This document shows positions 19,021 through 62,650 of a stretch of 64,000 nucleotides of DNA, piece by piece. The notes beneath the pieces were generated by a model that saw nothing but the letters and a program-made list of their open reading frames with translations, did no database searches and was not told the origin of the DNA. Numbering within the stretch: position 1 is the first letter of the stretch; each line of letters opens with the position of its first letter. The DNA is taken from assembly GCA_041661765.1 (NCBI GenBank), contig JBAZTV010000001.1:135755-199754 (forward strand), given 5' to 3'. The position numbers were made by a program, and so were the translations under genes. This stretch comes from Candidatus Shapirobacteria bacterium. GTDB lineage: Bacteria > Patescibacteriota > Microgenomatia > UBA12405.

Positions 19021-20265
19021 TTATTCAATTACTCGAACTTCACCTTTATGGGGCACTCCCATTGCGCAAGTAAATTTGTAAGTTCCAATTTTTTCTGGAG
19101 TAAATTCCATAACCAAAGTTTGTCCTGCCACTAAAGTTTGTGGTCTTTCAAAAAGCCCTGGTAATAAAATCGTCGACATACAGCCATACTCATTTTCTTT
19201 TACATCTATTTCAATTCGTACTCTTTGACCCTTTTTAACGGTCAAAGTATAGGGGCTTAATCCTAAAAATCGAGTATAATTAGCTTTTATAATTTGAGCC
19301 GGTTCTTGATTTTCTGTTTTAAGCCCTCCCTTTTCAAGGGAGGGTAGGGTGGGTTTTAAAATCCCAAACTGAAAATTCAAAGTATAAACCACAAAAAATA
19401 AAATCAGCAAACCCATTATTTTTTGATTTTTAAATAATTTTTCACTCGATAATCCAATTAAAAACAGGGGAATGCTGGTTCCCAATACAAAAGCCAACAT
19501 AATTAACATTCCGCTCATCCAACTTCCACTTAACATAGCCACACTTTCTGTAAGTAAAGTAAAACCACAAGGTAAAAGTATTGTTAAAAATCCAATCATC
19601 ATCGGTAATTTTTTGCTGGTTATTTTTTTACCAACCGACTTAGGTAAATTTATTTTAATTTTTTTGGCCCATTTCACTTGTAACATTTGCAAAGCCACAA
19701 TTATCATTACCGCCGACACTATTACTATTAACAAATTAGCCAATCCGGCCATAGAAATCGTTTGTCCCACCATTCCTAAAATTACTCCCAAAATTGTATA
19801 ACTTACCATTCTTCCCAATAGTATTTCCAAAGTTCTTTTCGGATAAGAAATAATTATTCCGCTCAACAATGCTCCACAGGTCGAAAATCCGGCAATAATT
19901 CCAAAGACAAAAAATGTTAATAATGAACTTTGATCATTAACATTCAAAAAACTCGCCAATCCAAATCTATTCAGTAATAAAAACACCAATATTATCATTA
20001 CCGCCGGCAACCACCAAAGCCCTCCCTTTTCAAGTGAGGGTGGAGTGGGTTTGTTTCCTATTTCAGAAAAACTATATCCATTTTTTTTAAACATATTATT
20101 TAATTTTTGAACACTTATTTTTTCTTTTGAGTCAATTTCCAGTATATTTTCCGTCAAATTTACCTCAGCTTTTTTTACCCCCACCATACTTTCCAAAGAA
20201 TCTTCAATTAAAATTTCACAGCTTTTACAATGCATTCCTTCTACTTTGTAAATCCGTTTTACCAT
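19021..20265 (-). CDS. HMA-domain membrane protein with C-terminal cupredoxin-like domain; carries two in-frame palindromic-element insertions
   Basis: N-term GMHCKSCE (HMA), multi-TM core, C-term FTCAMGVPHKGEV; repeated peptide KPTxPSLEKGGL at two linkers encoded by elements at 19324-19357 and 20020-20053. Confidence 0.6.
   Translation of the reverse strand: MVKRIYKVEGMHCKSCEILIEDSLESMVGVKKAEVNLTENILEIDSKEKISVQKLNNMFKKNGYSFSEIGNKPTPPSLEKGGLWWLPAVMIILVFLLLNRFGLASFLNVNDQSSLLTFFVFGIIAGFSTCGALLSGIIISYPKRTLEILLGRMVSYTILGVILGMVGQTISMAGLANLLIVIVSAVMIIVALQMLQVKWAKKIKINLPKSVGKKITSKKLPMMIGFLTILLPCGFTLLTESVAMLSGSWMSGMLIMLAFVLGTSIPLFLIGLSSEKLFKNQKIMGLLILFFVVYTLNFQFGILKPTLPSLEKGGLKTENQEPAQIIKANYTRFLGLSPYTLTVKKGQRVRIEIDVKENEYGCMSTILLPGLFERPQTLVAGQTLVMEFTPEKIGTYKFTCAMGVPHKGEVRVIE
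19324..19357. repeat. Bipartite palindromic element copy (in-frame in HMA membrane protein)
   Basis: CCCTCCC-TTTTCAA-GGGAGGG-TAGGGTGGGTTTT. Confidence 0.7.
20020..20053. repeat. Bipartite palindromic element copy (in-frame in HMA membrane protein)
   Basis: CCCTCCC-TTTTCAA-GTGAGGG-TGGAGTGGGTTTG. Confidence 0.7.
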
Positions 20266-20267
20266 AT

Positions 20268-20564
20268 TTATTTATTAAACATTTTAGTAACTCTCAAAAT
20301 TTCTTTTGTCATTTCTTCTTTCCTTTTTTCATCACCGCTTTTAATCGCACTCGAAAAACAGGTTTTCAAATGATTTTCCATCAACATTTGATGAGCTGAT
20401 TTGAGAAGGCCAATCACCGCTAAATTTTGCTGCATCACGTCAATGCAATATTCGCCATTTTCTATCATTTTAATGATTTTGCCCAAATGGCTTTGAGCTT
20501 TTTTAAAATTTGTTAATTCTGTCATACCTATACCTATGGTACAGGTAAAGATAATCATTGTCAA
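20268..20564 (-). CDS. csoR: CsoR/RcnR-family metal-sensing transcriptional repressor
   Basis: AQSHLGKIIKMIENGEYCIDVMQQNLAVIGLLKSAHQML..H..C signature; true start probably at internal Met (MTELT). Confidence 0.75.
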   Translation of the reverse strand: MTMIIFTCTIGIGMTELTNFKKAQSHLGKIIKMIENGEYCIDVMQQNLAVIGLLKSAHQMLMENHLKTCFSSAIKSGDEKRKEEMTKEILRVTKMFNK

Positions 20565-20585
20565 CTATTTGGAGTACAATTAACC

Positions 20586-21227
20586 ATGCCCAAAATAAAA
20601 GTTTCCAAAAACGGACCATATTTTGTCTCCGATAATTTACCTTTAAATAAAAACACTGTTGAATATGACGATGAAAGTATTCCTTTAAAAACCGAAAAAG
20701 GGAAATCAATTCCAACTCATCAAGATTATGCTCTCTGTCGTTGTGGTCATTCCAAAAATAAACCTTTTTGTGATGGTTCTCATAAAATTAATCATTTTAA
20801 TGGCACTGAAAATCGCGATGCTAAGCAAAAGTTTGAAAAAATTGCCAGTCAAATTGATGGCCCAGATTTAATTTTAAAAGACGCCACTAATCTTTGTGCT
20901 GGTGCTGGTTTTTGTCATCGAGCCGGCGGAGTTTGGAACTTAACTGAAAATTCTGATAATTCTCAATCAAAACAAACTGCTATCGAAGAATGTCATTGTT
21001 GTCCTTCTGGTCGTTTAGTTGCTGTTGATAAAATTACAGGGAAAATACTCGAATCAAAATTAGATCAATCTATTAGTATTCATCACAATGGCCCTCTTTG
21101 TGTCAAAGGGGGAGTCCCAATCGAAGCTGTCGATGGTTCAACTTATGAAATCAGAAATCGAGTCACTCTTTGTCGTTGTGGGAAATCTCAGAATAAACCT
21201 TTTTGCGACGGTTCACACTTAGATTAA
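20586..21227 (+). CDS. CDGSH-type iron-sulfur domain protein (two CDGSH motifs)
   Basis: CRCGHSKNKPFCDGSH and CRCGKSQNKPFCDGSH. Confidence 0.75.
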   Translation: MPKIKVSKNGPYFVSDNLPLNKNTVEYDDESIPLKTEKGKSIPTHQDYALCRCGHSKNKPFCDGSHKINHFNGTENRDAKQKFEKIASQIDGPDLILKDATNLCAGAGFCHRAGGVWNLTENSDNSQSKQTAIEECHCCPSGRLVAVDKITGKILESKLDQSISIHHNGPLCVKGGVPIEAVDGSTYEIRNRVTLCRCGKSQNKPFCDGSHLD

Positions 21228-21468
21228 TTATCAAAAAACCAATGATTATAAAAATCATAGTCACCGCCGATATCACATCGCTTATCCAACCAGTAGTAAT
21301 TTTTGGCCAAAATTGAGCTAATCCTAAGATTTGAAAATAATTTAAAAATTTTATATTTCCATTTTTAATCGCGCTAAAAATTAATACTCCAATATGAATT
21401 AATGCCGTCATTAACACAAATTTTAAAAAACTAGACCAAACTTTCTTACTTATTTTTATAAAAATCAT
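21163..21468 (-). CDS. Hypothetical small membrane protein (overlaps 3' end of CDGSH gene by 65 nt)
   Basis: ORF track; two TM helices; overlap makes call uncertain. Confidence 0.3.
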   Translation of the reverse strand: MIFIKISKKVWSSFLKFVLMTALIHIGVLIFSAIKNGNIKFLNYFQILGLAQFWPKITTGWISDVISAVTMIFIIIGFLIINLSVNRRKKVYSEISHNDKE

Positions 21469-21483
21469 AAATGCTCTTAATAT

Positions 21484-22059
21484 TTATATTTCCAACCAAT
21501 TCAAAAATTTTTGGATTTTCTTTTTTTCAATGCCTTTCTTTTCGCAATATTTATAAATTGTTTCCAGTTGTCTGTTTGCCATCACATTGGCCAAATTTAA
21601 TTTTTTCGGGTGCATAATATTAGGAGACACCTGTTTAACTTCATATAAAAAAGCCACCAAATCACAAATTTTTAAATCTTTTTCCAAATTTTCATCATAT
21701 TCCACTTCCAACGCTTCCAAAATATTATTTTGTAATTCATCTAATTTACTTCTCAATTCATCGGTTTTAAACATCGGCAAAATATCGCCCGTCACTGATT
21801 CATGTAAATCATGGAGCAATGCCATTATTACTAACTTATTTCGTGTCACTTCTGGATACTTATTAAATTTCGCCCAAAAAACAGCAATCAACGCCGTTGC
21901 ATAAGAATGTTTGCCCACATCCCAATTTCCCCCAAAACCACTGACTCCAAAAGCTCGGGGAATATTAAAAATATTCATTAGAAAATCCAATTTTGGATCT
22001 TTTTCAACTTCTTCCAAAATTCCCTGTGGTGTAAAAATATCATTGGCTCTTATTGTCAT
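21484..22059 (-). CDS. HD-domain phosphohydrolase
   Basis: HDLHESVTGDI HD motif. Confidence 0.65.
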   Translation of the reverse strand: MTIRANDIFTPQGILEEVEKDPKLDFLMNIFNIPRAFGVSGFGGNWDVGKHSYATALIAVFWAKFNKYPEVTRNKLVIMALLHDLHESVTGDILPMFKTDELRSKLDELQNNILEALEVEYDENLEKDLKICDLVAFLYEVKQVSPNIMHPKKLNLANVMANRQLETIYKYCEKKGIEKKKIQKFLNWLEI

Positions 22060-23261
22060 ATTTTTATTATAAACAGTTTATCGTTTTTTCTCACCTTTTC
22101 TTTAATCTTAAAAGTCATGATGTTTTTATCCATTTTTATCTCAAAAAACTTCCCTCTGACTACACCACTGCTTGGACCAATTATTATATAATTGTCGCCA
22201 TTATTTACTCTATTATCAGTAGTTAATTTTATTTCAGCAATTTTAACTTTTGGATAATAATGATCAATTTTCCCCAACAATATTTTTGTTTCTGTCGCCA
22301 AATTATTTTCACCAATAGCCCATTCATCTGTACTTCTTCCCAAATAAAAACCAGTTGACAATCCTCGATTAAAAACCGTTTTTAATTCTTCCAAAAATTT
22401 TTCTTTTTCTGTTTTTTTATATTTATTTTCTGCAATTAAATTTAATGCTTTTTTATAAACCCTAACCACCGTGTCAACATAATCAGCACTTCTAGCTCGA
22501 CCCTCAATTTTAATCGTACTAATTCCAATTTCCACTAATTTATCCAACAATCCAATTGTACATAAATCACTTCGACTCATAATCAAATTATTATCAAGGA
22601 TTAATTTTTTTCCAGTTTCCATTTCCGTCACTTCATATTTTCGTCGACACATTTGCACACACTTACCCCGATTAGCCGACAAATTTTGATGATATAAACT
22701 CATCTGACATCGACCCGAAATTCCCACACACATTGCTCCATGTCCAAATATTTCAATTTCGATTAATTTATTTTTTAGTCCAGTAATTTTTTTCTTTTTA
22801 ATTTCCTCAACTATTTTTTTAATTTGTTCCAAATTTAATTCCCGAGCCAACACAATTCTATCCACCCACTTGCTCAAAAATTCTATTGTTTCCAAATTCG
22901 ACACCGACATTTGGGTTGAAACACAAACTTCAATTTTCTTTTCATTTGCCATTTTTATCACCGCCAAATCAGAGGCAATAATGCCACTAACTCCAGTTTT
23001 TTTAATTTTGTCTAAAATCTTTTTTATATCGGTAATTTCTTCATCATAAACGACCGTATTTAAAGTCACCCAACTTTTTATCTTTGCTTTTTTACAGATT
23101 TGACTAATTTTTTCTAAGTCATTTATAGAAAAATTATTGGCCCCCGCCGCTCTCATATTTAAAATTCCAATTCCAAAATAAATTTCATCAGCTCCCGCGT
23201 TTATTGCCGCCATCAATAATTCAAAATTACCCGCCGGCGCTAAAATTTTTACTTTATTCAT
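22056..23261 (-). CDS. Peptidase U32 family protein (RlhA/TrhP-like)
   Basis: EIFGHGAMCVGISGRCQMS and KIEGRARS motifs of U32 family. Confidence 0.8.
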   Translation of the reverse strand: MNKVKILAPAGNFELLMAAINAGADEIYFGIGILNMRAAGANNFSINDLEKISQICKKAKIKSWVTLNTVVYDEEITDIKKILDKIKKTGVSGIIASDLAVIKMANEKKIEVCVSTQMSVSNLETIEFLSKWVDRIVLARELNLEQIKKIVEEIKKKKITGLKNKLIEIEIFGHGAMCVGISGRCQMSLYHQNLSANRGKCVQMCRRKYEVTEMETGKKLILDNNLIMSRSDLCTIGLLDKLVEIGISTIKIEGRARSADYVDTVVRVYKKALNLIAENKYKKTEKEKFLEELKTVFNRGLSTGFYLGRSTDEWAIGENNLATETKILLGKIDHYYPKVKIAEIKLTTDNRVNNGDNYIIIGPSSGVVRGKFFEIKMDKNIMTFKIKEKVRKNDKLFIIKI

Positions 23262-23281
23262 ATTTTTTAATTTTTTTTATT

Positions 23282-23319
23282 CTCCCTGCCCTGTCAAGGG
23301 AAGGGTCGGGGAAGGGTTT
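23282..23319. repeat. Bipartite palindromic element copy (intergenic, abutting gpmI stop)
   Basis: CTCCCTGCCCT-GTCAA-GGGAAGGG-TCGGGGAAGGGTTT. Confidence 0.65.
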
Positions 23320-24823
23320 AAACCAAAAGGCTTTCTCCTGTCATCTCCACTGGCTTTTCTATTCCCATTATTTCTAAAATTGTCGGCGCCACATCTTGCA
23401 ATCCACCGTCTTTAACTCGACCTTCAATTCCAATAAATGAAAACTTAACCGGATTAAAACCATGTGACACATCAACTTCACCATTTTTATAAAGCTTATT
23501 TTCGGCATTACCATGATCAGCCCCCACAATTACCACGTAATCATTTTCAATTCCCTTGTCCACAATTTTCCCCACTTCTTCATCCACCACCTCACAAGCC
23601 TTTTTAATCGCCTCAAATTTACCACTATGTCCCACCAAATCTGCATTAGCAAAATTAATTAAAATAAAATCATAATTACCAATCGCCTCCAATACTTTTT
23701 CGGTCACCTGTGGTGCCGACATTTCCGGTTGTAAATCATAAGATAACACTTTCGAACTAGGCACCATTATTCTATCCTCGCCCTTAAAAGCTGTTTCCTG
23801 TTGAGAATCAAAAAAGAAAGTTACGTGAGCATATTTTTCAGTTTCCGCAATTCTGATTTGTTTTTTATCATTTTTAGACAAAATTTCACCCAAATTATTT
23901 TTCACATTTTCTAACAGAAAGGCGACTGGTAAATCCCAAGATTTATCGTATGTTCCCATACAAACCCAAACCAAATCCAAATTACTTTGCAGTTCAGTCG
24001 GGCAAAGTGTTTGTCTGGTTATCATTGCTGTAATTTGGCGAGATCTATCAGTTCTAAAGTTAAACCAAATAAACGAATCACCAGATTTTAACAATCCATT
24101 TTTATTAATTATGGTTGGTTGTATATAATAATCAGTTTCATCGCCTCGCTCATAAGCTAAATTTATAGCCTCAATTGCGTCCATTGCTTCATAACCTTCA
24201 CCCTTAGTCCACAAATCAGCCGCTTCTTTTGTCCTCTCCCAATTTGTATCTCTATCCATGGCATAATATCTTCCCACCGCATCGGCAATTTTACCCACCC
24301 CAATTTCCTTTATTTTTTCATTTAATTGTTCAACATAAATTTTTGCCGATTTTTCGGGAACATCTCGTCCATCCAAAACCAAATGAATATAAACTTTTTC
24401 CAAACCATTATCTTTAGCCAATTTTAACAAAGCATATAAATGGTTCACATCAGAATGGACTCCAGCATCTGATAATAATCCCGACAAGTGAAGAGTAGAA
24501 TTATTTTTTTTGCAATTTTCAATCGCTTTTAATAAAGCCGGATTTTTAAAAAAACCGCCATCGAAGATGGCATCATTTATTATTTCCTGTGGCTGCCACA
24601 CAATTCGTCCAGCTCCCATCGTCAAATGACCAACTTCACTTCCACCTTGTGATCCTTCCGGATTACCCACATCTTTACCGCTACATTTTAATAAAGCCGA
24701 TGGATATTCACGCAAATATTTATCATTATTCGGCACCTTAGCCGCCATTATGGCATTACCATAAGAATCAGTTGAATAACCCCACCCATCTCTAATTATC
24801 AAAATTACTTTTTTATTCTGCAT
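23318..24823 (-). CDS. gpmI: 2,3-bisphosphoglycerate-independent phosphoglycerate mutase
   Basis: RDGWGY, GGSEVGHLTMGAGR, VLDGRD motifs. Confidence 0.9.
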   Translation of the reverse strand: MQNKKVILIIRDGWGYSTDSYGNAIMAAKVPNNDKYLREYPSALLKCSGKDVGNPEGSQGGSEVGHLTMGAGRIVWQPQEIINDAIFDGGFFKNPALLKAIENCKKNNSTLHLSGLLSDAGVHSDVNHLYALLKLAKDNGLEKVYIHLVLDGRDVPEKSAKIYVEQLNEKIKEIGVGKIADAVGRYYAMDRDTNWERTKEAADLWTKGEGYEAMDAIEAINLAYERGDETDYYIQPTIINKNGLLKSGDSFIWFNFRTDRSRQITAMITRQTLCPTELQSNLDLVWVCMGTYDKSWDLPVAFLLENVKNNLGEILSKNDKKQIRIAETEKYAHVTFFFDSQQETAFKGEDRIMVPSSKVLSYDLQPEMSAPQVTEKVLEAIGNYDFILINFANADLVGHSGKFEAIKKACEVVDEEVGKIVDKGIENDYVVIVGADHGNAENKLYKNGEVDVSHGFNPVKFSFIGIEGRVKDGGLQDVAPTILEIMGIEKPVEMTGESLLV

Positions 24824-28051: not shown

Positions 28052-28954
28052 TTAAGTCTCTGGTCGTCCCAAAATTCTTTTAATCAACTTCTTTATCCAA
28101 AAGTCTTTAAATTGCCCCAAGCGGTCGTTAAAATTAATTTCTTCTTTTACCCATAAATTTCCATAATCATCCTCATTTTTATCACTATATTTTTTATCCA
28201 AAAACTTTTGCGAAGCAGGGAATTGGACTTGAATATATTCATCCACCCAAAATATTTTTTTATAAATTTTTCTAAAAAATTCCATCATTTCTTTAATCTC
28301 CGATCCGGAATTTTTTGCTCCCCACGGCCAATATTCAAAAAATATCGTTGGTTTATTTTTTTCAATTATTTCTTTTCCTCCATCAATTACCAACGGCTCA
28401 AACCCTTGCACATCCATTTTAATAAAATCAATTTTTTTATAATCCAAATCTTTTAACAAATCATCCAACCTCCGACAAAAAACTTCAACAGATTTTCTAG
28501 ACTTGCCCCCTTCCTTAAGGGGGAATTCCGGTTTATCCGGAAGGGGGTTTTGATTTAAGAGGGTTTCTTCCCACATCCTATGATCTCCATAATTTTCTTT
28601 AGACTCGTAAATCCCCATTTTTTTATTCTCACTTCCTACTGCCGCTTGCACCGCCACCACATTAAATAATTTATTTTCTTTAATATTTTTTTGCAAAATT
28701 TCAAAATTAATTGGATCCGGTTCAATGGCAATTACTTTTCCGGTTTTACCCGTCCTTTCAGCAAATAACACCGTATCATAGCCAATATTTGCCCCAATAT
28801 CCAAAACCACATCACCAATTTTAATTTTCGACAACATTAAATCAGTCAAATACGGTTCATATTTTTCCAAAGCCACTCTTTGCCCTACATATTTATCATT
28901 CGGCAAATAATAAAAAGTATATTTTCCAAAAACTTTACATTTTTCCAATTTCAT
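28052..28954 (-). CDS. FkbM-family SAM-dependent methyltransferase (contains in-frame palindromic element)
   Basis: VLDIGANIGYDTVLFA...VIAIEP; element at 28506-28551 encodes NPLPDKPEFPLKEGGK in frame. Confidence 0.7.
   Translation of the reverse strand: MKLEKCKVFGKYTFYYLPNDKYVGQRVALEKYEPYLTDLMLSKIKIGDVVLDIGANIGYDTVLFAERTGKTGKVIAIEPDPINFEILQKNIKENKLFNVVAVQAAVGSENKKMGIYESKENYGDHRMWEETLLNQNPLPDKPEFPLKEGGKSRKSVEVFCRRLDDLLKDLDYKKIDFIKMDVQGFEPLVIDGGKEIIEKNKPTIFFEYWPWGAKNSGSEIKEMMEFFRKIYKKIFWVDEYIQVQFPASQKFLDKKYSDKNEDDYGNLWVKEEINFNDRLGQFKDFWIKKLIKRILGRPET
28506..28551. repeat. Bipartite palindromic element copy (in-frame in FkbM methyltransferase)
   Basis: CCCCCTTCC-TTAA-GGGGGAA-TTCCGGTTTATCCGGAA-GGGGGTTTT. 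Confidence 0.7.
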
Positions 28955-34825: not shown

Positions 34826-35170
34826 TCATTTACTTCTCATCACTCTAATTATCCAGTACCCCAAATATGCCAACAAAAAAAATTCAATTCCACTCACTAT
34901 CAAAAAAAATATTCCCACTCCATTAATAATTAATCCAAATCGATAATAATCCCAAACAACTCTCGCCATATAATAAACCAAAAACGGCATCAAAAAAACT
35001 ATTCCTACTAAAAACATTTGCGATTTATCTCTATCTTTCACAATTAATTTTTTAAACGTCAAAAATGGCTCTTCAATCATATGATACAAATTACATAATA
35101 ATTTCCAAATTTGTCGGACAATTATCAAAAAAATTAATTCTGTTATTTTTTTAATCCTTTTCTTGATCAT
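34826..35170 (-). CDS. Hypothetical membrane protein, possible anti-sigma factor (overlaps and follows ECF sigma gene)
   Basis: Position immediately downstream of sigma factor with 20-nt overlap; TM helices. Confidence 0.35.
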   Translation of the reverse strand: MIKKRIKKITELIFLIIVRQIWKLLCNLYHMIEEPFLTFKKLIVKDRDKSQMFLVGIVFLMPFLVYYMARVVWDYYRFGLIINGVGIFFLIVSGIEFFLLAYLGYWIIRVMRSK

Positions 35171-35657
35171 AAACCCAAGCCTCCCTGAATTTTTTCTTAG
35201 CTCTAATTAATTTTGATTCCACCGCCTTACCTGTCAATTTTAAATTTATTGCAATTTCATTTATTTTCATTCCTTCTATATATTTTAGTCGTAATATATC
35301 CTTATATCCTTTACTTATTTCTGCCAAAGTTTTTTTAATTTCTTCTTTTAATTCATTTTTAAGGACATCTCTTTCTGGAGTTAACGCCTTATCAGCAATT
35401 TCTTCAAATTCAGGTGAAAACGAGAATAAAATTGTCTTCAATTTTTTCTTTCGATAATAATCAATTATTTTATGCTTAGCAATACTACATATCCAGCTAA
35501 ATTCATTACAATCTCCCTTAAAATTAGACCGACACATCATTGCCGCCATCATAATATCATTAGTTAATTCTTCTATAACTCCTTCATCGTCAATCTTTTG
35601 ACTGACAAATTTTTTCACCCCCAAATAATATTTTTTATAAAAATTATCCATCGACAT
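35151..35657 (-). CDS. ECF-type RNA polymerase sigma-70 factor
   Basis: Region 2 (FSWICSIAKHKIIDYYRKK) and region 4 HTH (ILRLKYIEGMKINEIAINL..TGKAVESKLIRAKKKF). Confidence 0.75.
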   Translation of the reverse strand: MSMDNFYKKYYLGVKKFVSQKIDDEGVIEELTNDIMMAAMMCRSNFKGDCNEFSWICSIAKHKIIDYYRKKKLKTILFSFSPEFEEIADKALTPERDVLKNELKEEIKKTLAEISKGYKDILRLKYIEGMKINEIAINLKLTGKAVESKLIRAKKKFREAWVYDQEKD

Positions 35658-35747: not shown

Positions 35748-36536
35748 ATGTTCCCGTTTATTAATACCAATCCACTCCAAAAAATCAGTCAAAATTTGCG
35801 TCATGATTTATTGGATATGGTCTACAAAAACGGCGGACACATCGGCGGGTCATTATCATCAATCGATTTAATTACTACCGTTTATTTCGGGAATCTCTTT
35901 AATTTAAAAAAAGATCATTTTATTTTATCCGCTGGTCACTTAGCTCCGGCTCTTTACACTGTTCTCGCCAATGCTGGTTATTTCGATAAAAAATTACTCG
36001 ACACTTATTCAAATTTCACATCCATTTTACAAGGTCATATTTCCACCGAAGTTCCCGGAGTTAATTATTCTTCCGGCGCTCTTGGACAAGGTCTCTCTTT
36101 TTCTTGTGGTTTGGCTCTGGGTGATCCAAAACATACCACCATTTGTCTCACCAGCGATGGTGAACACCAAGAAGGTCAAATCTGGGAATCATTGCTTTTC
36201 GCCAAAAAGTATAAATTAGGCAATTTAATTAATATTGTAGACTTTAACCAATTTCAAATCGACGGTTCAGTTTCTGAAATTATGCCTCTCGACAATTTAG
36301 CTGCCAAATATATTCAATTTGGTTGGACAGTTACCACTGTCGACGGTCACAATTTTAATCAAATAATTTCTGCCTTAAAAAAAGCTGTAGAGACGCGCCA
36401 TGGCGCGTATCCTGTCTGTATTATTGCTAAAACAACCGTTGGTAAGGGAATCTCCTTTATGGAAAATAATTTTAAATATCATGATGTTAAAAAACTTTCC
36501 GAAAGTTTATATAATCAGGCCAAATCAGAACTATGA
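35748..36536 (+). CDS. Transketolase, N-terminal subunit
   Basis: GGHIGGSLS, GALGQGLS, TSDGEHQEG ThDP-binding motifs; contains in-frame GC palindrome ACGCGCCATGGCGCGT. Confidence 0.85.
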   Translation: MFPFINTNPLQKISQNLRHDLLDMVYKNGGHIGGSLSSIDLITTVYFGNLFNLKKDHFILSAGHLAPALYTVLANAGYFDKKLLDTYSNFTSILQGHISTEVPGVNYSSGALGQGLSFSCGLALGDPKHTTICLTSDGEHQEGQIWESLLFAKKYKLGNLINIVDFNQFQIDGSVSEIMPLDNLAAKYIQFGWTVTTVDGHNFNQIISALKKAVETRHGAYPVCIIAKTTVGKGISFMENNFKYHDVKKLSESLYNQAKSEL

Positions 36537-37516
36537 TAAATTCTATTCGCCAATCATTTGGTGACACCCTCACTAAATTAGCTAAAAATAATAAAAATAT
36601 TTTTGTTGTTAATGCCGATTTAAAATCATCACTTTTTCTAAATGATTTTGCTAAAAAATTCCCTCGTCGTTTTATTGAGTGCGGCGTTGCCGAAAACAAT
36701 GCAGCGGCCGTTGCTGCTGGTCTTGCTCAAACTGGAAAAACTGTTTTTTTAACTTCTTTTGCCTGTTTTTCTCCCGCCATTAATTGGAATACCATTAAAC
36801 AATCAATTTGTTACAACAATTCTAATGTCAAAATTATTGGTTCCCATGCTGGTCTTATGAGTACTGATCTTGGCGCCACCCATCAAATGCTTGAAGATTT
36901 AGCCTTAATGCGCTCTCTTCCCAACATGGAAGTTTTTTCACCTCTTGATGCCCTTGAAACTGAAAAAATTATTAAAACCATTTCCTTTAGTAAAAAACCA
37001 GCTTACATTCGTTTAGTTCGTCCCTCAACCCAAAATCTTTTTGATCCAAAATTCGATTTCACCATTGGCAAATCTCATATTTTACAATCTGGCAAAGACA
37101 TCACCATTATTGGTCATGGGCCCATTTTAGAAGAAGCTTTTCAAGTCCAGGCTAAACTAAATTTAGACAATAAATACAAAAAAATTTCTCTCGAAATTAT
37201 CAATTGTTCATCTATCAAACCTCTTGATACTTTCACCATTTTAAAAAGCGTTAAAAAAACTGGACACCTAATTTGTCTTGAAGATCATCAAAAAAATGGA
37301 GGGCTAGGGGAGGCAGTCGCTTCTCTAATTCTAACCAATAATTTTTCTTGTAAATTTATTCATTTGGCCGTCGATAATAGTTTTGGCCGTTCAGCTAAAA
37401 CTTATCAGGAGCTGTACAATTATTATGGCATCGGCGTTAATGATTTACTTTCCGCCGTTACTTCTCTCCTCGTTAAGGAGAGATCCGGTTTATCCGGAAA
37501 GAGGATTTTAAAATAA
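36533..37516 (+). CDS. Transketolase, C-terminal subunit (C-terminal tail encoded by palindromic element)
   Basis: Pyrimidine-binding and C-terminal domains; last 17 aa SLLVKERSGLSGKRILK encoded by element 37463-37509. Confidence 0.85.
   Translation: MINSIRQSFGDTLTKLAKNNKNIFVVNADLKSSLFLNDFAKKFPRRFIECGVAENNAAAVAAGLAQTGKTVFLTSFACFSPAINWNTIKQSICYNNSNVKIIGSHAGLMSTDLGATHQMLEDLALMRSLPNMEVFSPLDALETEKIIKTISFSKKPAYIRLVRPSTQNLFDPKFDFTIGKSHILQSGKDITIIGHGPILEEAFQVQAKLNLDNKYKKISLEIINCSSIKPLDTFTILKSVKKTGHLICLEDHQKNGGLGEAVASLILTNNFSCKFIHLAVDNSFGRSAKTYQELYNYYGIGVNDLLSAVTSLLVKERSGLSGKRILK
37463..37509. repeat. Bipartite palindromic element copy (encodes C-terminal tail of transketolase C-subunit and its stop)
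   Basis: TCTCTCCTC-GTTAA-GGAGAGA-TCCGGTTTATCCGGA-AAGAGGATTTT; hairpin 2 identical to copy at 28506. Confidence 0.7.
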
Positions 37517-44585: not shown

Positions 44586-45359
44586 TCAATGGTGAAAGAA
44601 AGCTTCATGCAATCCAACTTTCTCATTTTTTATTTTTTTTCTCATATATAAAAATTGTGGCCAAAACACCATCCAATTTATCACTCCATCTAATCTTAAC
44701 AAAGTTTCCCTTTTCAAGGGAGATGTCTTGCGAAGCGAGACAGTGGGTTTCAAACTATAACCAGTAGCAACGTATTTTTTTGCCCAACCATTAGCCAAAA
44801 TAAATTTTTCATAAGTTTTTTTTCTATTTATCAACGGTTTCATTAATATTAAATCAACCGCATTTTTTAAATTTTGTTTTTCTTTCTTAAGCCCTAACGA
44901 TTCTTCGTCTAACCATAAATTAAAACAGAATTCATCAGCTTTCTCTCTCTCCCCAAATTTACGGTGGGGTATTTTATTCGTCTTAATAAAAAATCTCAAT
45001 TTCAACCTAGTAACCCACAATTTACTTATTTTCGTAATGATTATCAAATCAATATCATTATTTTTTTTTGGATATCCGGCTGCCACTGATCCTGTTATTC
45101 CCAAAAATAAAATATCTTTAAAATTTTTAGAAATTTTCTTAGTCAACCCTTTCGCCTTTTTCTCCTTTATTAAAGCCTCCCTGCCTGCCTGCCTCTGGAG
45201 GGTCAAGGGGAGAGGGGTTTGTTCTATTATTTTTACAAACTCTTCCTTTTTATAAACCCGATTTCCAATCAATCTTTCAAATAATTGTTTTTCATTTAAT
45301 TGGCCACCATGTTTTTGGGCATATTTAATTGTTTTCTGAATCGATTCAAAAGTATCCAT
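44586..45359 (-). CDS. Hypothetical protein with nucleotidyltransferase-like motif; two in-frame palindromic elements
   Basis: LGITGSVAAGYPKKNNDIDLIII (GS..D.D); elements at 44704-44750 and 45176-45221 read in frame. Confidence 0.45.
   Translation of the reverse strand: MDTFESIQKTIKYAQKHGGQLNEKQLFERLIGNRVYKKEEFVKIIEQTPLPLTLQRQAGREALIKEKKAKGLTKKISKNFKDILFLGITGSVAAGYPKKNNDIDLIIITKISKLWVTRLKLRFFIKTNKIPHRKFGEREKADEFCFNLWLDEESLGLKKEKQNLKNAVDLILMKPLINRKKTYEKFILANGWAKKYVATGYSLKPTVSLRKTSPLKRETLLRLDGVINWMVFWPQFLYMRKKIKNEKVGLHEAFFHH
44704..44750. repeat. Bipartite palindromic element copy (in-frame in ORF 44586..45359)
   Basis: TTTCCC-TTTTCAA-GGGAGA-TGTCTTGCGAAGCGAGACA-GTGGGTTTC. Confidence 0.65.
45176..45221. 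repeat. Bipartite palindromic element copy with internal (CTGC)3 (in-frame in ORF 44586..45359)
   Basis: CCTCCCTGCCTGCCTGCCTCTGGAGGG-TCAA-GGGGAGAGGGGTTTG. Confidence 0.6.
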
Positions 45360-52946: not shown

Positions 52947-54053
52947 CTATTCCCAAGCAGGAAGTGAACCTTTAATTAAAAATTCTAACATTACTCCACC
53001 ACCAGAACAAACAAAATCAATCTTATTTTCCAACCCCAGATTTACAATTGATGCTACTGTATCACCGCCGGCAATTATTTTATAAGCGTTTGAACCAGCA
53101 ATCGCTTTGGCAATTTCCTCAGTTCCTTTTTTGCAATTTCCTTTTTCATAAAACCCCATTGCTCCCGCCCAAATAATCATTTTAGCCTCATAAATTATTT
53201 TTTTAAATTTTTCAATATCTTCATCGCTTAAATCCAATCCATCCTCCCTCAATTCTGCCACTAAAATTTTAGCCTCCCTGTCAAGGGAGGTGCCCGAAGG
53301 GCGGAGGGTTTTAATCAATTTTGGTAATTTACCGCCAATTAATATTTGGTCAGTCATTTTTGCCAATTCACCCAAATTTTTCAATTTATCCTCCTTAACT
53401 CCACCTAAAATCACCACTAAACCTTTATTATTCTGCTTTGCAGAATTTTCTAAAATTAAATCTATTTTTCCTACCTCTTTCACGAAATCTAAGCCATAAT
53501 AAGTCTCCATTTCTCGATGTAACATTATCGATGCTGCCGCTCGATGGGCGACGGCAAATGCATCATTCACATAAACCGTCGCATATTTTTTTAATACCGA
53601 AAACAGGGCTGTATTACCATCTTCTTCCTCTTTATAAAATCTCAGATTTTCTCCAAAAATTATTTCATTTTCAGAAATTGCCTTTTTAATTTTTTCTTCA
53701 TTTTTTATATCATCCACAAAAACATTTTTTACACAATCTCCACCACAATCGGCCTCCAAAATCTCCATCAATTCTAAGTAAATTGGCCTTAAAGATAAAT
53801 TATTTTCTTTATTTTTTGGCCTGCCCAAGTGCCCCACTATTACTATTTTATTTTCTCTCTCCAATAGTAATTTAATTATTGGAATCGATTTTATCAATCG
53901 ACTACTATCTAAAATTTGGCCGTCCATCATTGGCAAATCCAAATCCATTCGCAAAATAACTACATTTCCTTCGTTAATATTTTCAACCGAGTTTAGTTTT
54001 TTCATATTTTTTAATTTTATTAATTCTTCTAATAAATCTCTCTTCACTGGCAA
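52947..54053 (-). CDS. pgk: Phosphoglycerate kinase (start probably internal Met ~54005); palindromic element embedded in-frame
   Basis: RMDLDLPM, GHLGRPK, GGGV/GGKL core, AGGDTVA; element 53273-53313 encodes IKTLRPSGTSLDREA. Confidence 0.9.
   Translation of the reverse strand: MPVKRDLLEELIKLKNMKKLNSVENINEGNVVILRMDLDLPMMDGQILDSSRLIKSIPIIKLLLERENKIVIVGHLGRPKNKENNLSLRPIYLELMEILEADCGGDCVKNVFVDDIKNEEKIKKAISENEIIFGENLRFYKEEEDGNTALFSVLKKYATVYVNDAFAVAHRAAASIMLHREMETYYGLDFVKEVGKIDLILENSAKQNNKGLVVILGGVKEDKLKNLGELAKMTDQILIGGKLPKLIKTLRPSGTSLDREAKILVAELREDGLDLSDEDIEKFKKIIYEAKMIIWAGAMGFYEKGNCKKGTEEIAKAIAGSNAYKIIAGGDTVASIVNLGLENKIDFVCSGGGVMLEFLIKGSLPAWE
53273..53313. repeat. Bipartite palindromic element copy (in-frame in pgk)
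   Basis: CCTCCCT-GTCAA-GGGAGG-TGCCCGAAGGGCG-GAGGGTTTTA; 18 + 11 nt identical to intergenic copy at 61799. Confidence 0.7.
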
Positions 54054-57173: not shown

Positions 57174-57191
57174 AATTTATTGTATCAATTT

Positions 57192-57200: not shown

Positions 57201-57213
57201 ATCCACATCATTA

Positions 57214-57285
57214 CCAGCGGTGACCGAACGGTTAGGTGGCAGTCTGTAAAACTGTTTTGAGCAGGTTCGACTCCTGCCCGCTGGA
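57214..57285 (+). tRNA. tRNA with anticodon GUA (Tyr), short 5-nt variable loop
   Basis: CCAGCGG/CCGCUGG acceptor, anticodon stem GCAGU/ACUGU loop CUGUAAA, T-arm GCAGGUUCGACUCCUGC, discriminator A. Confidence 0.7.
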
Positions 57286-57373
57286 CATAACTTACAATAT
57301 TTGATTTTTCCCAAATTTCACGATAAAATCACGTGTACTTTCAAACTAAATTTTAAAGGGAGGGTAATTTTAA

Positions 57374-57720: not shown

Positions 57721-57900
57721 AATTTAGTTAAATAGCGTCGATAAAAAAGGGAAATAAAGTTGTTTTATATGCATATCGCATATTCCAACAACCAATTTTT
57801 CTTTTTAATAATATCGGCGCTTTTTTCTTGTCAAATTTATTACAGATTAAACTCATATCCTATGGACATTTCCATTTTTCCACGTATAGTCACTCTATGA

Positions 57901-58133
57901 AGGATAAAATTATTGATGTTGTTAGTTGGTGTGGTACATTTGTTGCAATTTTAGCCTATATTTTGGTTAGTTTTAAAATTATTCAACCGAACCTGATTTA
58001 TCAAATTCTCAATATTTCTGCTGCTATGAGCATTGCTATTGTTTCTTTTCATAAAAAAGTTTATCAACCCGCCGTTCTAAATATAATTTCCGTATTAATT
58101 GGAACTATTGCCATAGTAAAATACTATTTATAG
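57901..58133 (+). CDS. Hypothetical small membrane protein (start ATG 57901 inside track ORF 57828..58133)
   Basis: ORF track; 2-3 TM. Confidence 0.35.
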
Positions 58134-59207
58134 ATGTATCTATCTAAACTTCTTCTTCAAAATTTTCGCTCATATCCACAACAACTCATCGAATTTGATC
58201 CCAAATTAAATCTTATTCTTGGTCCCAATGGTTCCGGTAAAACTAATATTATAGAGGCCATTTTTATCCTAGCCGCTGGTAAAAGTTTCCGATCTAGTTC
58301 TCAATCAAAATTAATTAATTGGAATGATTTTTTTACTTCAGTCCGAGCCAAACTTATTAACGATAAAAATGAAACCAGTGAAATCGAAATTAAATTAATC
58401 AAAGATCAAACCGGCAAAAGTAGTACCGTTTCCCGTAAATTTTTAATCGATAAGGTCGAAAAAACCAGAAAGACATACATTGGTATTTTTAAAAACGTTA
58501 TCTTTCATCCTGAAGACATTCGTCTAATTAATGGTTCTCCTAATCGCCGCCGTGAATTTTTAGACGAAATTTTTCTTCAAACTGAGTGGCGTTATACTCA
58601 GGCTTTATCTCAATATAACAAAGCCATAAAACATCGAAATGAACTTCTCAATCAAGTCCGAGAAGGCAAATCTATCAAATCGGAGCTTTTTTATTGGGAT
58701 CAAACCCTTATTAAAAATGCCAGAATAATCCACGATTTTCGCACCACTTTTATTCGTTCTACTAATTCTTTTTTTCAAAATCACCCCGATTCTCAAATTA
58801 AATTAATTTTTCTAAATTACCATCCCTCAATTTTGACTGAAGACAGGTTGGAAAAAAGTTATCAATTAGATCTTCATCGTGGTTGCACTCAGATTGGTAT
58901 CCATCGTGATGATTTTAGTTTTAATAATAATGATTTTTCTACTGAAGATAAAAATTTAGCTTTTTGGGGCAGTCGGGGACAGCAACGACTTGCTGTTTTA
59001 GCCATTCGTTTAGCCCAAATTAATTATTTGGAAAAAATTTATCAAGATAAACCAGTTTTATTATTAGATGATATCTTTTCCGAACTCGACCCAGATCATC
59101 AAAAATTAGTCGTATCTTTGTGTCAAAAATATCAAACAATCTTCACAGCCGCCGAACCTGAAAGTATTAAGATTCTATCTACCGCCAAATTGATTCAACT
59201 TACCTAG
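58134..59207 (+). CDS. recF: DNA replication/repair protein RecF
   Basis: LLQNFRSY, Walker A GPNGSGKTN, signature and D-loop. Confidence 0.9.
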   Translation: MYLSKLLLQNFRSYPQQLIEFDPKLNLILGPNGSGKTNIIEAIFILAAGKSFRSSSQSKLINWNDFFTSVRAKLINDKNETSEIEIKLIKDQTGKSSTVSRKFLIDKVEKTRKTYIGIFKNVIFHPEDIRLINGSPNRRREFLDEIFLQTEWRYTQALSQYNKAIKHRNELLNQVREGKSIKSELFYWDQTLIKNARIIHDFRTTFIRSTNSFFQNHPDSQIKLIFLNYHPSILTEDRLEKSYQLDLHRGCTQIGIHRDDFSFNNNDFSTEDKNLAFWGSRGQQRLAVLAIRLAQINYLEKIYQDKPVLLLDDIFSELDPDHQKLVVSLCQKYQTIFTAAEPESIKILSTAKLIQLT

Positions 59208-59393
59208 TGCAAATTTCAATCTTGTGTAATATAATAACCTCACTGCCTGAAACAAGGCAGAATTGTTCTTTAAAATTAAGTTCACAATTTGTTTAGAGCC
59301 AGAAGCTGTTAGTACCAGAAAGATTTTCAAAAAAAATTTTTGATTGATTATTTAAATCAATTGATTTCGAATTTATTCGAAATGTTAGTACTA

Positions 59394-60887
<1,494 letters not shown>

Positions 60888-60980
60888 GAGGTTTATGTCC
60901 AATCCATAAGATTGGACCATCTCATCCTTTCTGGTACTAACAGTTCGGCTCTAAACAAGTGAATTTAATTTTAATCTTAA

Positions 60981-61006
60981 AATCCGCCATTTGGCGGATT
61001 TTTTGA
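60981..61006 (+). terminator. Rho-independent terminator after 16S
   Basis: AAAATCCGCC-ATTT-GGCGGATTTTTT. Confidence 0.6.
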
Positions 61007-61051
61007 TACAATACCACATGAATTTTAGTCCTTTACCGACTAAACAAACAT

Positions 61052-61786
61052 ATGAAAAAAAACAATTCGCCTTTTATCACTAATTTAAAAATTGATCAAA
61101 ATGCCTTACCGAAACATATTGCCATTATTATGGATGGTAATCGCCGTTGGGCTATTAAACATGGAGTAAAGGCTAGTGAAGGTCACAAAGCCGGTGCTCA
61201 AAATTTAGAAAATATCGTTGATTATTGCCGTGATATCGGTATAAAAAATATTACCGTCTATGCTCTTTCCACTGAAAATTGGCGTAAACGTTCAGTCGAA
61301 GAAGTCAAAGGTATTTTTAATTTACTAATTAATGTTGTTAAAACTAAAAGTAAAGAGTATCAAAAATCTGGTATTAAATTTTTTGTCTTAGGTAATTTTC
61401 AAGCTTTTCCTTTTAAAGTAAAACATGCCATCAAAAAGATTTTAAATATGGTTTTAGATAAAGAAAGAATTAAATTTAACGTTGCCCTTAATTATGGAGG
61501 TCGCGACGAAATTGTTAACGCCATCAAAAATATTATTAAAGACGGAGTTAAATCTTCAGACGTTAACGAAAAATTAGTTTCCAACTATCTTTACACCACT
61601 GGTCAACCAGATCCAGATCTAGTTATTCGTCCAGGCGGAGAATTTCGTCTTTCTAATTTTCTTTTATGGCAAACATCATATGCTGAACTTTATTTTACCA
61701 ATACCCTTTGGCCAGATTTCACTCCAAAAGAACTAGAAAAAGCTATTTATTGGTATCAACAACGTGATCGCCGTTTAGGTAAGTAA
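61052..61786 (+). CDS. uppS: Undecaprenyl diphosphate synthase
   Basis: IMDGNRRWA, LSTENWRK, RPGGEFRLSNFLLWQ. Confidence 0.9.
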   Translation: MKKNNSPFITNLKIDQNALPKHIAIIMDGNRRWAIKHGVKASEGHKAGAQNLENIVDYCRDIGIKNITVYALSTENWRKRSVEEVKGIFNLLINVVKTKSKEYQKSGIKFFVLGNFQAFPFKVKHAIKKILNMVLDKERIKFNVALNYGGRDEIVNAIKNIIKDGVKSSDVNEKLVSNYLYTTGQPDPDLVIRPGGEFRLSNFLLWQTSYAELYFTNTLWPDFTPKELEKAIYWYQQRDRRLGK

Positions 61787-61798
61787 AAAAAAAGAAAT

Positions 61799-61846
61799 GC
61801 CGCCCTGTCAAGGGAGGTGGTCCGAAATTTCGGACCGGAGGGTTTT
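61799..61846. repeat. Bipartite palindromic element copy (intergenic between convergent uppS and small membrane gene)
   Basis: GCCGCCCT-GTCAA-GGGAGG-TGGTCCGAAATTTCGGACC-GGAGGGTTTTA. Confidence 0.7.
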
Positions 61847-61850
61847 ATTT

Positions 61851-62138
61851 TTACATAAAACTAACACCAAGCAAAACTTCCACTATTTTAGCAATAAAAT
61901 AAGACACAAAAATAATTAAAAACCCAATTATTGCCCCAGTTATTTTTCCATAAGCCGCTTTCGATTTATCCGGACTTCCTACCGATGTCATTAAGCCAAT
62001 TCCACCACTAATCAACATTAATAATAATATTAGCCCGGCTATAACATAAACATAAGGCAACAATTTCCCAACTATTTCACCTATCGTGGCAGTTTTAAAA
62101 CTAAAACCAGTGTTACCATAAAGATCCATTAATGCCAT
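61851..62138 (-). CDS. Small membrane protein (2 TM), possibly TrbC/VirB2 pilin-like; tandem paralog
   Basis: Signal-like N-term, GGIGLM...ITGAIIGFLII; resembles neighbour 62141..62527. Confidence 0.4.
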   Translation of the reverse strand: MALMDLYGNTGFSFKTATIGEIVGKLLPYVYVIAGLILLLMLISGGIGLMTSVGSPDKSKAAYGKITGAIIGFLIIFVSYFIAKIVEVLLGVSFM

Positions 62139-62140
62139 AT

Positions 62141-62527
62141 TTAATTTATTCCTGGGATTTGTAAAATATTAACTGCAACTAATCTTAAAATAAAAATTGC
62201 AAAAATACAGACCAATAATCCAATCACTGCCGAAGTGATTGTTTCTCTAGCACCTTGAACCTTCTTTTCATCCCCAGCAGATGTGGCAATTAAAATAAAA
62301 CCATAAGACATCAATAAAAAGGCAATTCCACCTGCAACTCCAAATAACCAACCCAGTAACCAAGGCACAAAAGAATTCATTTCTACTGGAATACAACCAA
62401 GGGCTGTATTAATTGATGTAGTAGAACAACCAGCAAAAGGATCATACGCAAAAACGGTTTTTTTAAAAAAGCCTCCAAAACCGATTGTCAACATTCCCAA
62501 AACCAACAATATCTTTCTCTTCAACAT
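62141..62527 (-). CDS. Small membrane protein, paralog of 61851..62138
   Basis: Signal peptide, conserved GGIAFLLMSYG...ITSAVIGLL. Confidence 0.4.
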   Translation of the reverse strand: MLKRKILLVLGMLTIGFGGFFKKTVFAYDPFAGCSTTSINTALGCIPVEMNSFVPWLLGWLFGVAGGIAFLLMSYGFILIATSAGDEKKVQGARETITSAVIGLLVCIFAIFILRLVAVNILQIPGIN

Positions 62528-62603
62528 ATTTGTAGTATATCAAATGTTAAAATTAAACTGTGTATCTAAAGCCCAAAAAATTATTAATATTTTTTTTGTT
62601 TTT

Positions 62604-62650
62604 AGCCCTCCTTTTTCAAGGGAGGGTGCCCGCAGGGCGGGTGGGTTTGA
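62604..62650. repeat. Bipartite palindromic element copy (5' region/N-terminus of SpoIID-like gene)
   Basis: AGCCCTCC-TTTTTCAA-GGGAGGG-TGCCCGCAGGGCGGG-TGGGTTTGA. Confidence 0.7.

Follow-up and report, generated by a model that had tools for sequence, protein, structure and literature searches.

Short structured repeats are scattered through a 64,000-nucleotide stretch of DNA (the window; contig JBAZTV010000001.1), and most of them lie in frame inside protein-coding genes, which raises the question of what these elements are and how they could have reached such sites. The source of the window is a bacterium of the candidate phyla radiation (CPR), Candidatus Shapirobacteria, within Microgenomates. 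Repeats of the intrastrand triplex type go back in the literature to the 1990s, first under the name BoxC and then as PIT or TMECO. A preliminary description of the window had instead compared its repeats with Rickettsia palindromic elements (RPEs); what it observed was confirmed in part, and its interpretation was likewise supported in part. The elements probably form a triplex-type repeat family that has an endonuclease of the DUF559 family as its partner, and the copies in the window are, on the same reading, solo, non-autonomous members.

Three-arm architecture of the elements

Every element was composed of a pyrimidine arm (Y), a loop of 3-9 nt, a first purine arm (R1) that forms Watson-Crick pairs with Y, a linker, a second purine arm (R2), and a T tail. 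The order Y-R1-R2 was kept in all 10 copies of the window and in 168 unique copies from related DNA. The layout as reported earlier (a C/T arm, a loop ending in TCAA or TTAA, a G/A arm, an optional GC hairpin, a second G/A arm, and T's) was borne out. R2 was R1 read backwards and antiparallel to it, with G kept and A represented by A or T, and the T tail continued the mirror onto the A's at the 5' end of R1. Examples include AGGGAGG...GGAGGGT, AAGGGAGGG...GGGTGGGTT, and AAAGGGAGA...AGAGGGATT, as well as GGGAGGGGG...GGGGGAGGG or GGGGGTGGG and AGGAGAGGGG...GGGGTGAGGT in other taxa. The arms themselves were diverse, as is evident from the pairs AGGAGAGGGG/GGGGTGAGGT, AAAGGGAGA/AGAGGGATT, and GGGAGGGGG/GGGGGAGGG.

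The mirror rule was compared with a direct-repeat rule on perfect Y/R1 hairpins that were picked blind to R2, with search-pattern copies excluded, and the best downstream arm followed the mirror rule in 54 cases and the direct repeat in 6. In more than 100 metagenome copies, which were selected by a pattern whose only downstream requirement was GGTTT, the first G-run of R2 followed the distal R1 G-run (2+n) in length, and the final run was always G3. A direct repeat would give the opposite covariation of G-runs. The three-way covariation is compatible with a triplex. The DNA folds of the ten window copies had Y paired with R1, the linker hairpin folded, and R2 and the T tail free, with z-scores of -2.7 to -6.5 for eight of the ten. 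Such Watson-Crick folds with a single-stranded R2 are compatible with a triplex and are no proof of it. It had also been proposed that the 5' arm pairs with either G-run; because R2 mirrors R1, pairing of Y with R2 is systematically poorer than pairing with R1, and the minimum free energy folds of the DNA always paired Y with the first G-run. The alternative pairing was rejected on the mirror statistics and the folds.

Elements were 30-60 nt long (median 39). The linker between R1 and R2 was bimodal, with 2-5 nt in 54 copies and at least 11 nt (11-25 nt) in 106; 81 of these 106 long linkers contained a perfect hairpin of at least 4 bp, and 7 of the 10 window copies were of the long-linker form. 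The linker hairpin appeared to be modular, in that TCCGGTTTATCCGGA was found in two window copies with unlike arms (2 occurrences in the window against 0 expected). GGGAGGG alone was not enriched in the window (5 observed against 2.97 expected).

To judge from sequence, the geometry of the element fits a class II purine-motif intrastrand DNA triplex, which is defined by the motif Y-loop-R-loop-reverse-Hoogsteen arm and the triples G.G:C, A.A:T, and T.A:T (PMC4666352), and the elements would be expected to fold in this way in vivo. Purine-motif triplexes do not form in RNA (PMC4666352). From the triple rules (PMC4666352), structural selection would act on the G-rich DNA strand, because T, often placed opposite A in R2, would put a non-canonical A in the third arm of the C-rich strand. 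A single mismatch, G of the Y arm opposite A of R1, recurred in the window copies at 61800 and 23284, at L008 208-247, and in L071 and L025 (L and P numbers denote comparison loci and proteins, respectively). Its recurrence in unrelated copies and phyla suggests a non-canonical triple that is tolerated or even favoured.

The G-rich arms might instead form G-quadruplexes, with the C-rich arm acting as a competing switch, and the copy at 19324 does hold GGGAGGGTAGGGTGGG, a textbook four-tract motif, as many copies have four G-tracts. This proposal is scarcely credible, since the mirror rule also holds in copies without G-tracts, such as those at 37463 (GGAGAGA / AAGAGGA) and 35681, a quadruplex would not need tract lengths in mirror order (3,5 | 5,3), and the Y arm always covaries with R1. 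The A-rich variants without G-tracts led to its rejection as a general explanation.

A custom structure scanner that encodes the full three-arm rule was used instead of a covariance model, because such a model can represent neither a third arm outside Watson-Crick pairing nor a hairpin insert that varies. In 796 kb of related low-GC DNA, the scanner returned 232 raw hits and 168 unique copies after filtering, compared with 1 hit in block-shuffled sequence and 5 in reversed sequence, in which the arm order is opposite. The element family is therefore far above chance, and the earlier claim of a dispersed family of short structured repeats was upheld. Rfam searches around the elements, both at gathering thresholds and with permissive settings, matched no family.

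Relation to known repeats

Holder et al. (2015), following Hoyne and Maher (Hoyne et al. 2000), reported class II repeats from many bacteria (PMC4666352). The E. coli BoxC/PIT/TMECO consensus is CCCTCNCCC N3-6 GGGNGAGGG N3 GGGNGAGGG, and for TMECO the formation of a triplex in vitro was demonstrated by circular dichroism and nuclear magnetic resonance, while its loci have been tied to genome rearrangement (PMC4666352). On their predicted geometry, the window elements belong structurally to this class, which was already known. The order of parts, the triple rule, and stems of 6-11 nt are common to both; in both, a single mismatched triple is frequent (the most common E. coli variant, 'mm', has one; PMC4666352), copies occur as singlets and inverted doublets, and the surrounding DNA is locally variable. 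The sequence family is another one, as the arms in the window are of the CCCTCCC, CCTCCCT, TCTCTCC, or CCCCCTT types and not CCCTCNCCC, so that the likeness to TMECO is one of architecture. Published loops are 1-6 nt long (ITxF), with N3 as loop 2 of TMECO, whereas loop 2 measures 11-25 nt in two thirds of the CPR copies. Furthermore, 7 of 10 copies in the window and about one third overall stood in frame in genes and strand bias was strong, in contrast to the intergenic E. coli elements, for which no strand bias has been reported. A link to DUF559 is absent from the account of the E. coli elements by Holder et al. (PMC4666352). What is new here is the CPR host, the GC hairpin in loop 2, the in-frame coding copies, the strand rule, and the swapping of sites among relatives; the same triplex architecture is abundant in CPR bacteria, where it enters coding sequence in frame under a strand rule.

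RPEs are simple palindromes of about 100-150 bp that are not known outside Rickettsia. The comparison with them, made by description and not by sequence, held in one respect: both are short, GC-richer repeats of AT-rich reduced genomes, are translated as in-frame insertions in genes, and carry no transposase. Membership was not supported, as the elements of the window are 30-60 nt long, belong to the triplex-motif class with its three-arm mirror, and occur in several phyla. Nor do they resemble miniature inverted-repeat transposable elements, as single elements lack terminal inverted repeats and filled and empty sites differ without a consistent duplication.

A close parallel in organization was provided by the REP/REPIN-RAYT systems, in which a small nuclease gene is likewise bracketed by inverted copies of a dispersed structured repeat that occurs as singlets and doublets, the repeats are specific to a lineage, and the enzyme could plausibly recognize a folded single strand. 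The two differ in enzyme and in repeat. The enzyme considered here is DUF559 (PF04480) of the Vsr/PD-(D/E)XK type and not an HUH Y1 protein (TnpA_REP); covalent strand transfer is not expected, because DUF559 does not belong to the HUH family. REP is a plain hairpin tagged with GTAG or CGTC, and the present element is a hairpin with a third strand.

DUF559 genes between inverted elements

In metagenome loci, two inverted elements about 460 bp apart bracketed a gene for a protein of 120-150 residues. This protein matched Pfam DUF559 (PF04480; E = 1e-28), PDB 3HRL (E = 1e-18), and, weakly, PDB 3R3P, which is the catalytic domain of the homing endonuclease I-Bth0305I. Catalytic-type residues (D, E-x-D, and H) were invariant in the bracketed proteins; these acidic and His residues and the DUF559 match constitute the likeness to Vsr-fold nucleases (the Vsr mismatch nickase, I-Bth0305I, and 3HRL). 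We know of no substrate for any DUF559 protein.

Eight loci that were found through their elements contained a DUF559 gene between complete inverted elements with tails directed outward. The 3' element overlapped the end of the DUF559 open reading frame (ORF), which gave C-termini such as ...RKASLSREV... and a stop codon right past the T tail. In the low-GC loci, elements were present at both ends of all 7 DUF559 ORFs, compared with 11 of 668 other ORFs (Fisher p = 2.6e-12); these 11 (12 in a looser list that adds an ORF of L226) were ordinary genes in element-dense DNA, and their elements were mostly in the same orientation. Sampling that started from the protein gave the same arrangement. 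All three CPR loci (a 907-kb CPR genome, Microgenomates, and SR1) were bracketed, as were all six PLSDB loci, namely two from Sphingomonas parapaucimobilis and one each from Pseudanabaena, Picosynechococcus, Synechocystis, and Azospirillum, with arms typical of each lineage. The DUF559 gene of a metagenome-assembled genome (MAG) of Dongiaceae adjoined an element. In E. coli K-12, a BoxC lay about 160 nt downstream of the DUF559 gene ycjD, and a degenerate Y/R hairpin extended across the stop codon. Elements of the same kind bracket DUF559 genes across several phyla, and genes with elements at their ends were found in CPR, Alpha- and Gammaproteobacteria, and Cyanobacteria. Full-text literature searches found no paper tying DUF559 or Vsr-like nucleases to repeats. 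The association is a new lead and the first functional one for DUF559, a very large and widespread family.

DUF559 genes 78-85% identical to the reference copy L191 were located in at least four genomic neighbourhoods, and three more diverged units shared the neighbourhood nusG/secE - nrdR. The ycjD locus was also variable, being present in 3346 of 5426 E. coli genomes. A correlation of TMECO with ycjD by megablast with a 36-mer was uninformative on TMECO copy number, because only one locus per genome was matched (3524 of 5426 genomes).

Several further observations concern these loci. In E. coli K-12, a duplicated fragment of the ycjD 3' end adjoined BoxC (fabI-ycjD-sapF; L244 5040-5830), and in strain 536 and an O157:H7 strain (L245 and L246) a TetR/RND-efflux island that begins where K-12 has BoxC replaced the ycjD locus. 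In L257 (plasmid NZ_CP155753.1 of Sphingomonas parapaucimobilis, 112113-113415), a DUF559 unit was situated between sufB and sufC, normally a tight operon. Arrays of near-identical units stood next to a DUF559 gene at L150 1839-3100, L190 543-763, L209 3800-4180, and in L134; the units were spaced at about 190-210 bp and about 1 kb, and each ended in CCTCCC TTTTCAA GGGAGG TT GGGAGGG, which is a short-linker element. A micrococcal-nuclease-like ORF at L243 208-864 had elements in the same orientation within 90 nt of both of its ends, which may be a coincidence.

It is unlikely that DUF559 is simply a free-standing homing-type endonuclease that uses pre-existing elements or head-to-head pairs as a landing site, in the manner of IS elements that target REP, with the elements spreading by other means and the window copies unrelated to its activity. 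Head-to-head pairs without a gene, 17-33 nt apart, do occur (L165 and L151) and resemble an empty DUF559 arrangement; the similarity to I-Bth0305I, the unit between sufB and sufC, and a window with 10 elements and no DUF559 gene would also be expected. However, such homing would leave the gain and swapping of solo elements at the same sites unexplained. The copies flanking DUF559 had lineage-specific arms in every phylum sampled, which is equally expected under co-evolution of nuclease and repeat. In many lineages, moreover, the stop codon of the ORF is part of the 3' element, which overlaps the ORF end, and this suggests that DUF559 and the elements are a long-standing unit.

Gain, loss and swapping of copies

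The element segment in pgk aligned with a stretch that varies in solved PGKs. In a set of 30 Shapirobacteria-like orthologues, this site held three element variants, encoding KTLRPSGTSLDRE, QNPSPALRELPLTRE, and NPSADKSASPFDKRE, each of which was a complete three-arm element in the DNA with its own arms and hairpin, and the site was nearly empty in L006 and P0042. In a pgk tree built without the element segment, the variants were polyphyletic. Sister sequences carried different states, as in P0001 (variant A) and P0002 (variant B), P0005 (B) and P0014 (none), and P0004 (C) and P0012 (none), and distant sequences shared a state. The HMA protein had the same pattern of variants and absence at both of its sites, both in inter-domain linkers, and the sites in the nucleotidyltransferase-like (NTase-like) gene and downstream of uppS carried different variants or none in relatives. 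Element-free orthologues exist for pgk and the HMA protein, and the earlier reading of many copies as in-frame insertions was upheld, with loops and linkers of the proteins tolerating them. These results demonstrate that close relatives have acquired, lost, or replaced copies at one and the same codon position.

Differences in presence or absence between genomes with flanks 90-95% identical argue for mobility, as the preliminary description had supposed. A 49-nt element was cleanly present in L164 and absent from L199, with flanks 92-95% identical and without flanking direct repeats, and further differences of this kind were seen. Over syntenic regions of 20 kb, the strict scan counted four copies for the window but did not find any in L007 or L009. 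Elements were preferentially preceded by TTTTAAG and followed by TTTTAA.

At L199 ~3522-3552 and 1182-1203, both intergenic sites, short AT-only perfect palindromes, AATAATTTTTAAAAATTATT or TTGTAAATTTTACAA, stood in place of the element found in the counterparts (L181 2099-2135 and L141 10279-10327); these palindromes may be preferred targets or functional equivalents. Some pgk sites had fillers that were not elements, including three tandem CCAATTT heptamers at L008 10678-10709 and GTTGAAA-type tandem repeats at L009 ~10680-10727. A DRS(L/S)I(V/I)DRRN filler (DRSLIVDRR-type) recurred in unrelated branches of the pgk tree, and odd fillers were also present at L007 10681-10709 and in the proteins P0006, P0008, P0011, P0027, and P0036. 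The pgk site looks hypervariable through more than one mechanism.

The elements could also be structural DNA signals that benefit the host and are maintained by selection, such as punctuation of replication or transcription, or sites for recombination or for organising the nucleoid, in which case they would be neither selfish nor mobile and DUF559, as a housekeeping nuclease, would serve to resolve or repair triplexes. Three-way compensatory covariation is a mark of selection on structure, and the retention of elements at orthologous sites across orthologues 60-80% identical, the strong genome-strand bias, and the DUF559 unit between nusG/secE and nrdR in three genomes agree with such a role. 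It is nevertheless improbable given the very unequal density in the syntenic regions described above, the clean indel differences between 95%-identical flanks, and the poor suitability of non-conserved loops of essential enzymes for a positional signal. In addition, the E. coli PIT element had neither promoter nor terminator activity and no effect on replication in vivo in the work of Maher's group, as cited by Holder et al. (PMC4666352).

Coding insertions and strand bias

Of the 168 unique elements, 54 were located inside long ORFs, and 49 of these 54 were on the locally C-rich strand, irrespective of whether they were sense (16:3) or antisense (33:2) to the gene. Loci with multiple copies were nearly uniform in orientation (7/7, 6/7, 5/5 in three cases, and 4/4 in four cases). 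In the window, the seven in-frame copies were in five hosts on the minus strand and two on the plus strand, yet all elements were on the plus strand. The orientation of the elements follows the C-rich strand of the genome and not the direction of the gene.

The GC skew of the plus strand of the window was below zero nearly everywhere, whatever the direction of the genes. In related Microgenomates, a single strand is C-rich round the whole chromosome and the same strand bears the rRNA genes (PMC7143001), and the skew in the window matches this one-directional pattern. The strand bias of the elements may reflect replication. The elements account for short, patchy, palindrome-encoded inserts in alignments of CPR proteins and mark hypervariable sites in them. 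The peptide KTLRPSGTSLDR is an example of the junction peptide of an in-frame element.

A proposed mode of spread

The full unit is proposed to be a DUF559 endonuclease gene of the Vsr/PD-(D/E)XK type between two inverted copies of the element. The G-rich single strand would fold as a hairpin with a third strand in its major groove, as in BoxC/PIT/TMECO of E. coli. Once folded, the element would be recognised or cut by the nuclease, after which repair or replication by the host would copy elements into sites that are new or occupied already, a logic similar to that of REP and RAYT. Stop codons are almost absent from both the C-rich and the G-rich strand, which would let copies survive between genes and in loops and linkers of proteins, so that about one third of them would come to stand in frame in gene-dense CPR genomes. 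Their orientation may result either from selection against triplex folding on the strand exposed in replication or from strand-specific insertion. It may even be that DUF559 proteins in general, including YcjD of E. coli, are the cognate nucleases of intrastrand-triplex repeats and drive their copying or replacement, although this broader proposal is tentative.

Several points weigh against this account. A hydrolytic PD-(D/E)XK nuclease cannot perform strand transfer alone, so that the route of mobilisation is hypothetical. The pairs of filled and empty sites revealed no consistent target-site duplication (one pair fits TTTA and another none). Some sites keep their elements across orthologues 60-75% identical, which may mean retention by structural selection and not repeated insertion. 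In elements with 2-nt linkers, the first triples beside the turn cannot form. The element tails in L257 point inward to the DUF559 gene, in contrast to the outward tails of CPR loci, and polarity is not uniform. The E. coli elements were described as 'always intergenic' and without strand bias, and the E. coli survey reported no transposase or integrase near them and no mobility genes (PMC4666352). Finally, there is no DUF559 gene within the window, and the window copies differ among themselves. Because they differ, they do not represent a recent burst; given both facts, they are best seen as solo and possibly old members of the family.

The origin, spread, and partner protein of triplex repeats have been a puzzle, and the bracketing by DUF559 genes provides a testable hypothesis of nuclease and substrate. 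If it is true, this would be a second partnership of a nuclease with a repeat beside RAYT-REP, with another chemistry and a three-stranded recognition structure, and gene-dense CPR genomes would have peptides of 11-17 residues repeatedly written into the loops of essential enzymes.

Copies in the window

Copies were called by reading the sites already reported and by scanning both strands for hairpins of a pyrimidine arm and a purine arm. Ten convincing copies were found, all on the plus strand (Table 1), fewer than the at least 12 that had been counted. The hosts named earlier (pgk, the FkbM methyltransferase, the HMA protein with two copies, the tkt C-terminus, and the SpoIID N-terminus) were all recovered. 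The NTase-like ORF, for which two copies had been given, contained one, which brings the in-frame copies to seven; all seven had Pfam domains on both sides or nearby.

Table 1. Elements found in the window, with their sequence features, hosts or neighbouring genes, and encoded peptides.
Position	Strand	Form	Sequence features	Location	Encoded peptide	Remarks
19324..19357	+	short-linker	CCCTCCCTT ttc AAGGGAGGG ta GGGTGGGTT	antisense in HMA/DsbD_2/cupredoxin ORF (19021-20265, -), in the linker preceding the cupredoxin domain	KPTLPSLEKGG	DNA fold z = -3.5
20020..20056	+	short-linker, degenerate	R1 = GTGAGGG, R2 = GGAGTGGG	antisense in HMA/DsbD_2/cupredoxin ORF (19021-20265, -), past the HMA domain	KPTPPSLEKGG	DNA fold no better than shuffles; fits decay
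23284..23319	+	short-linker	CCCTGCCCT gtca AGGGAAGGG tcg GGGAAGGGT	intergenic, peptidase U32 gene (22056-23261, -) / iPGM gene (23318-24823, -)		T tail overlaps the iPGM stop codon
28504..28552	+	long-linker	hairpin TTCCGG tttat CCGGAA	antisense in FkbM methyltransferase ORF (28052-28954, -)	NQNPLPDKPEFPLKEGG	another variant at the orthologous site in L149
35681..35732	+	long-linker	hairpin GTCCCGCC act GGCGGGAC	intergenic, divergent genes: sigma-70-like (35151-35657, -) / transketolase N-terminal subunit (35748-36536, +)		DNA fold z = -6.5
37463..37509	+	long-linker	hairpin TCCGG ttta TCCGGA, a module common to the 28504 copy	sense, 3' end of transketolase C-terminal subunit (tkt) ORF (36533-37516, +)	SLLVKERSGLSGKRILK	final 17 codons of the ORF; stop codon immediately after
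44705..44752	+	long-linker	hairpin GTCTTGC gaa GCGAGAC	antisense in NTase-like ORF (44586-45359, -)	KPTVSLRKTSPLKRE	other variants at this position in orthologues of L002 and L004
53273..53312	+	long-linker	CCTCCCT gtca AGGGAGG t GCCC gaa GGGC GGAGGGT	antisense in pgk (52947-54005, -), downstream of GGKLPKLI	KTLRPSGTSLDREA	
61800..61846	+	long-linker	Y-arm mismatch G opposite A (CCGCCCT / AGGGAGG); hairpin GGTCCGAAATTTCGGACC	intergenic, convergent genes: uppS (61052-61786, +) / T4SS-pilin-like (61851-62138, -)		other variant in L008, no element in L009
62606..62648	+	long-linker	hairpin GCCCGC ag GGCGGG	sense, N-terminal region of SpoIID-domain ORF (start ~62560, +, continues beyond the window)	ALLFQGRVPAGRVGLN	ORF complete in L241

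The remaining three copies were intergenic, with one over a stop codon, one between divergent genes, and one between convergent genes. The initial model of the elements, that of an RPE-like palindromic insertion which works at the RNA level through a switching 5' arm and serves as a terminator in its intergenic copies, is very improbable. Two hairpins followed by T's, the position of 61800 between two convergent genes and that of 37463 where tkt ends, and in-frame insertion like that of RPEs do speak for it. However, the mirror rule contradicts it, the T's covary with the A's of R1 and high-GC relatives have no T run, and R2 places 6-10 nt between the last hairpin and the T's, unlike in an intrinsic terminator. 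Only one or two of the ten copies had both a place at a gene's 3' end and the correct orientation; most were antisense in genes or at a divergent promoter (7 in ORFs and one at the promoter). The lack of a match in Rfam and a length of 30-60 nt against more than 100 bp for RPEs are likewise at variance with it. A terminator role was rejected on the position and anatomy of the copies.

The window is AT-rich (GC 0.27-0.40) and contains one 16S rRNA gene, five tRNAs, and tightly packed genes. At 59387-60887, the gene that comes after the 16S rRNA gene is uppS and not the 23S rRNA gene, and the rRNA genes are hence unlinked in the window.

Distribution beyond the window

The first pattern that was searched in genome contigs had 14 specified bases and was too unspecific, the matches listed being mostly chance or terminator hairpins. 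Among the listed matches to this pattern, at least about 20 in other phyla had the full architecture. Full three-arm elements were recorded among the matches listed in Sphingomonas, Sphingobium, Sphingomicrobium, a Dehalococcoidia MAG, a Clostridia MAG, Bacteroidota, Patescibacteria, and others. In the specific metagenome scan, most contigs among the matches listed had a GC content of 0.29-0.40. A phage vector was considered and rejected, as there was 1 match in 2.9 million viral contigs.

In Sphingomonas prati (L019 2632-2735), two inverted elements were arranged tail to tail and formed a palindrome of about 100 bp, which produced spurious matches to microRNA models; the hits near this doublet in the permissive Rfam search were generic hairpin matches of that kind. 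A separate repeat was composed of an CCTCCCTTTTCAAGGGAGG hairpin without a third arm, followed by the hairpin GGCTCCCTTGTAAAGGGAGC, and its flanks were near-identical across samples. It was present in L147 (from a human-gut metagenome), L166, L176, L177, L195, L232, and L242, at a GC content of about 0.55-0.57, and is probably a separate hairpin-repeat family.

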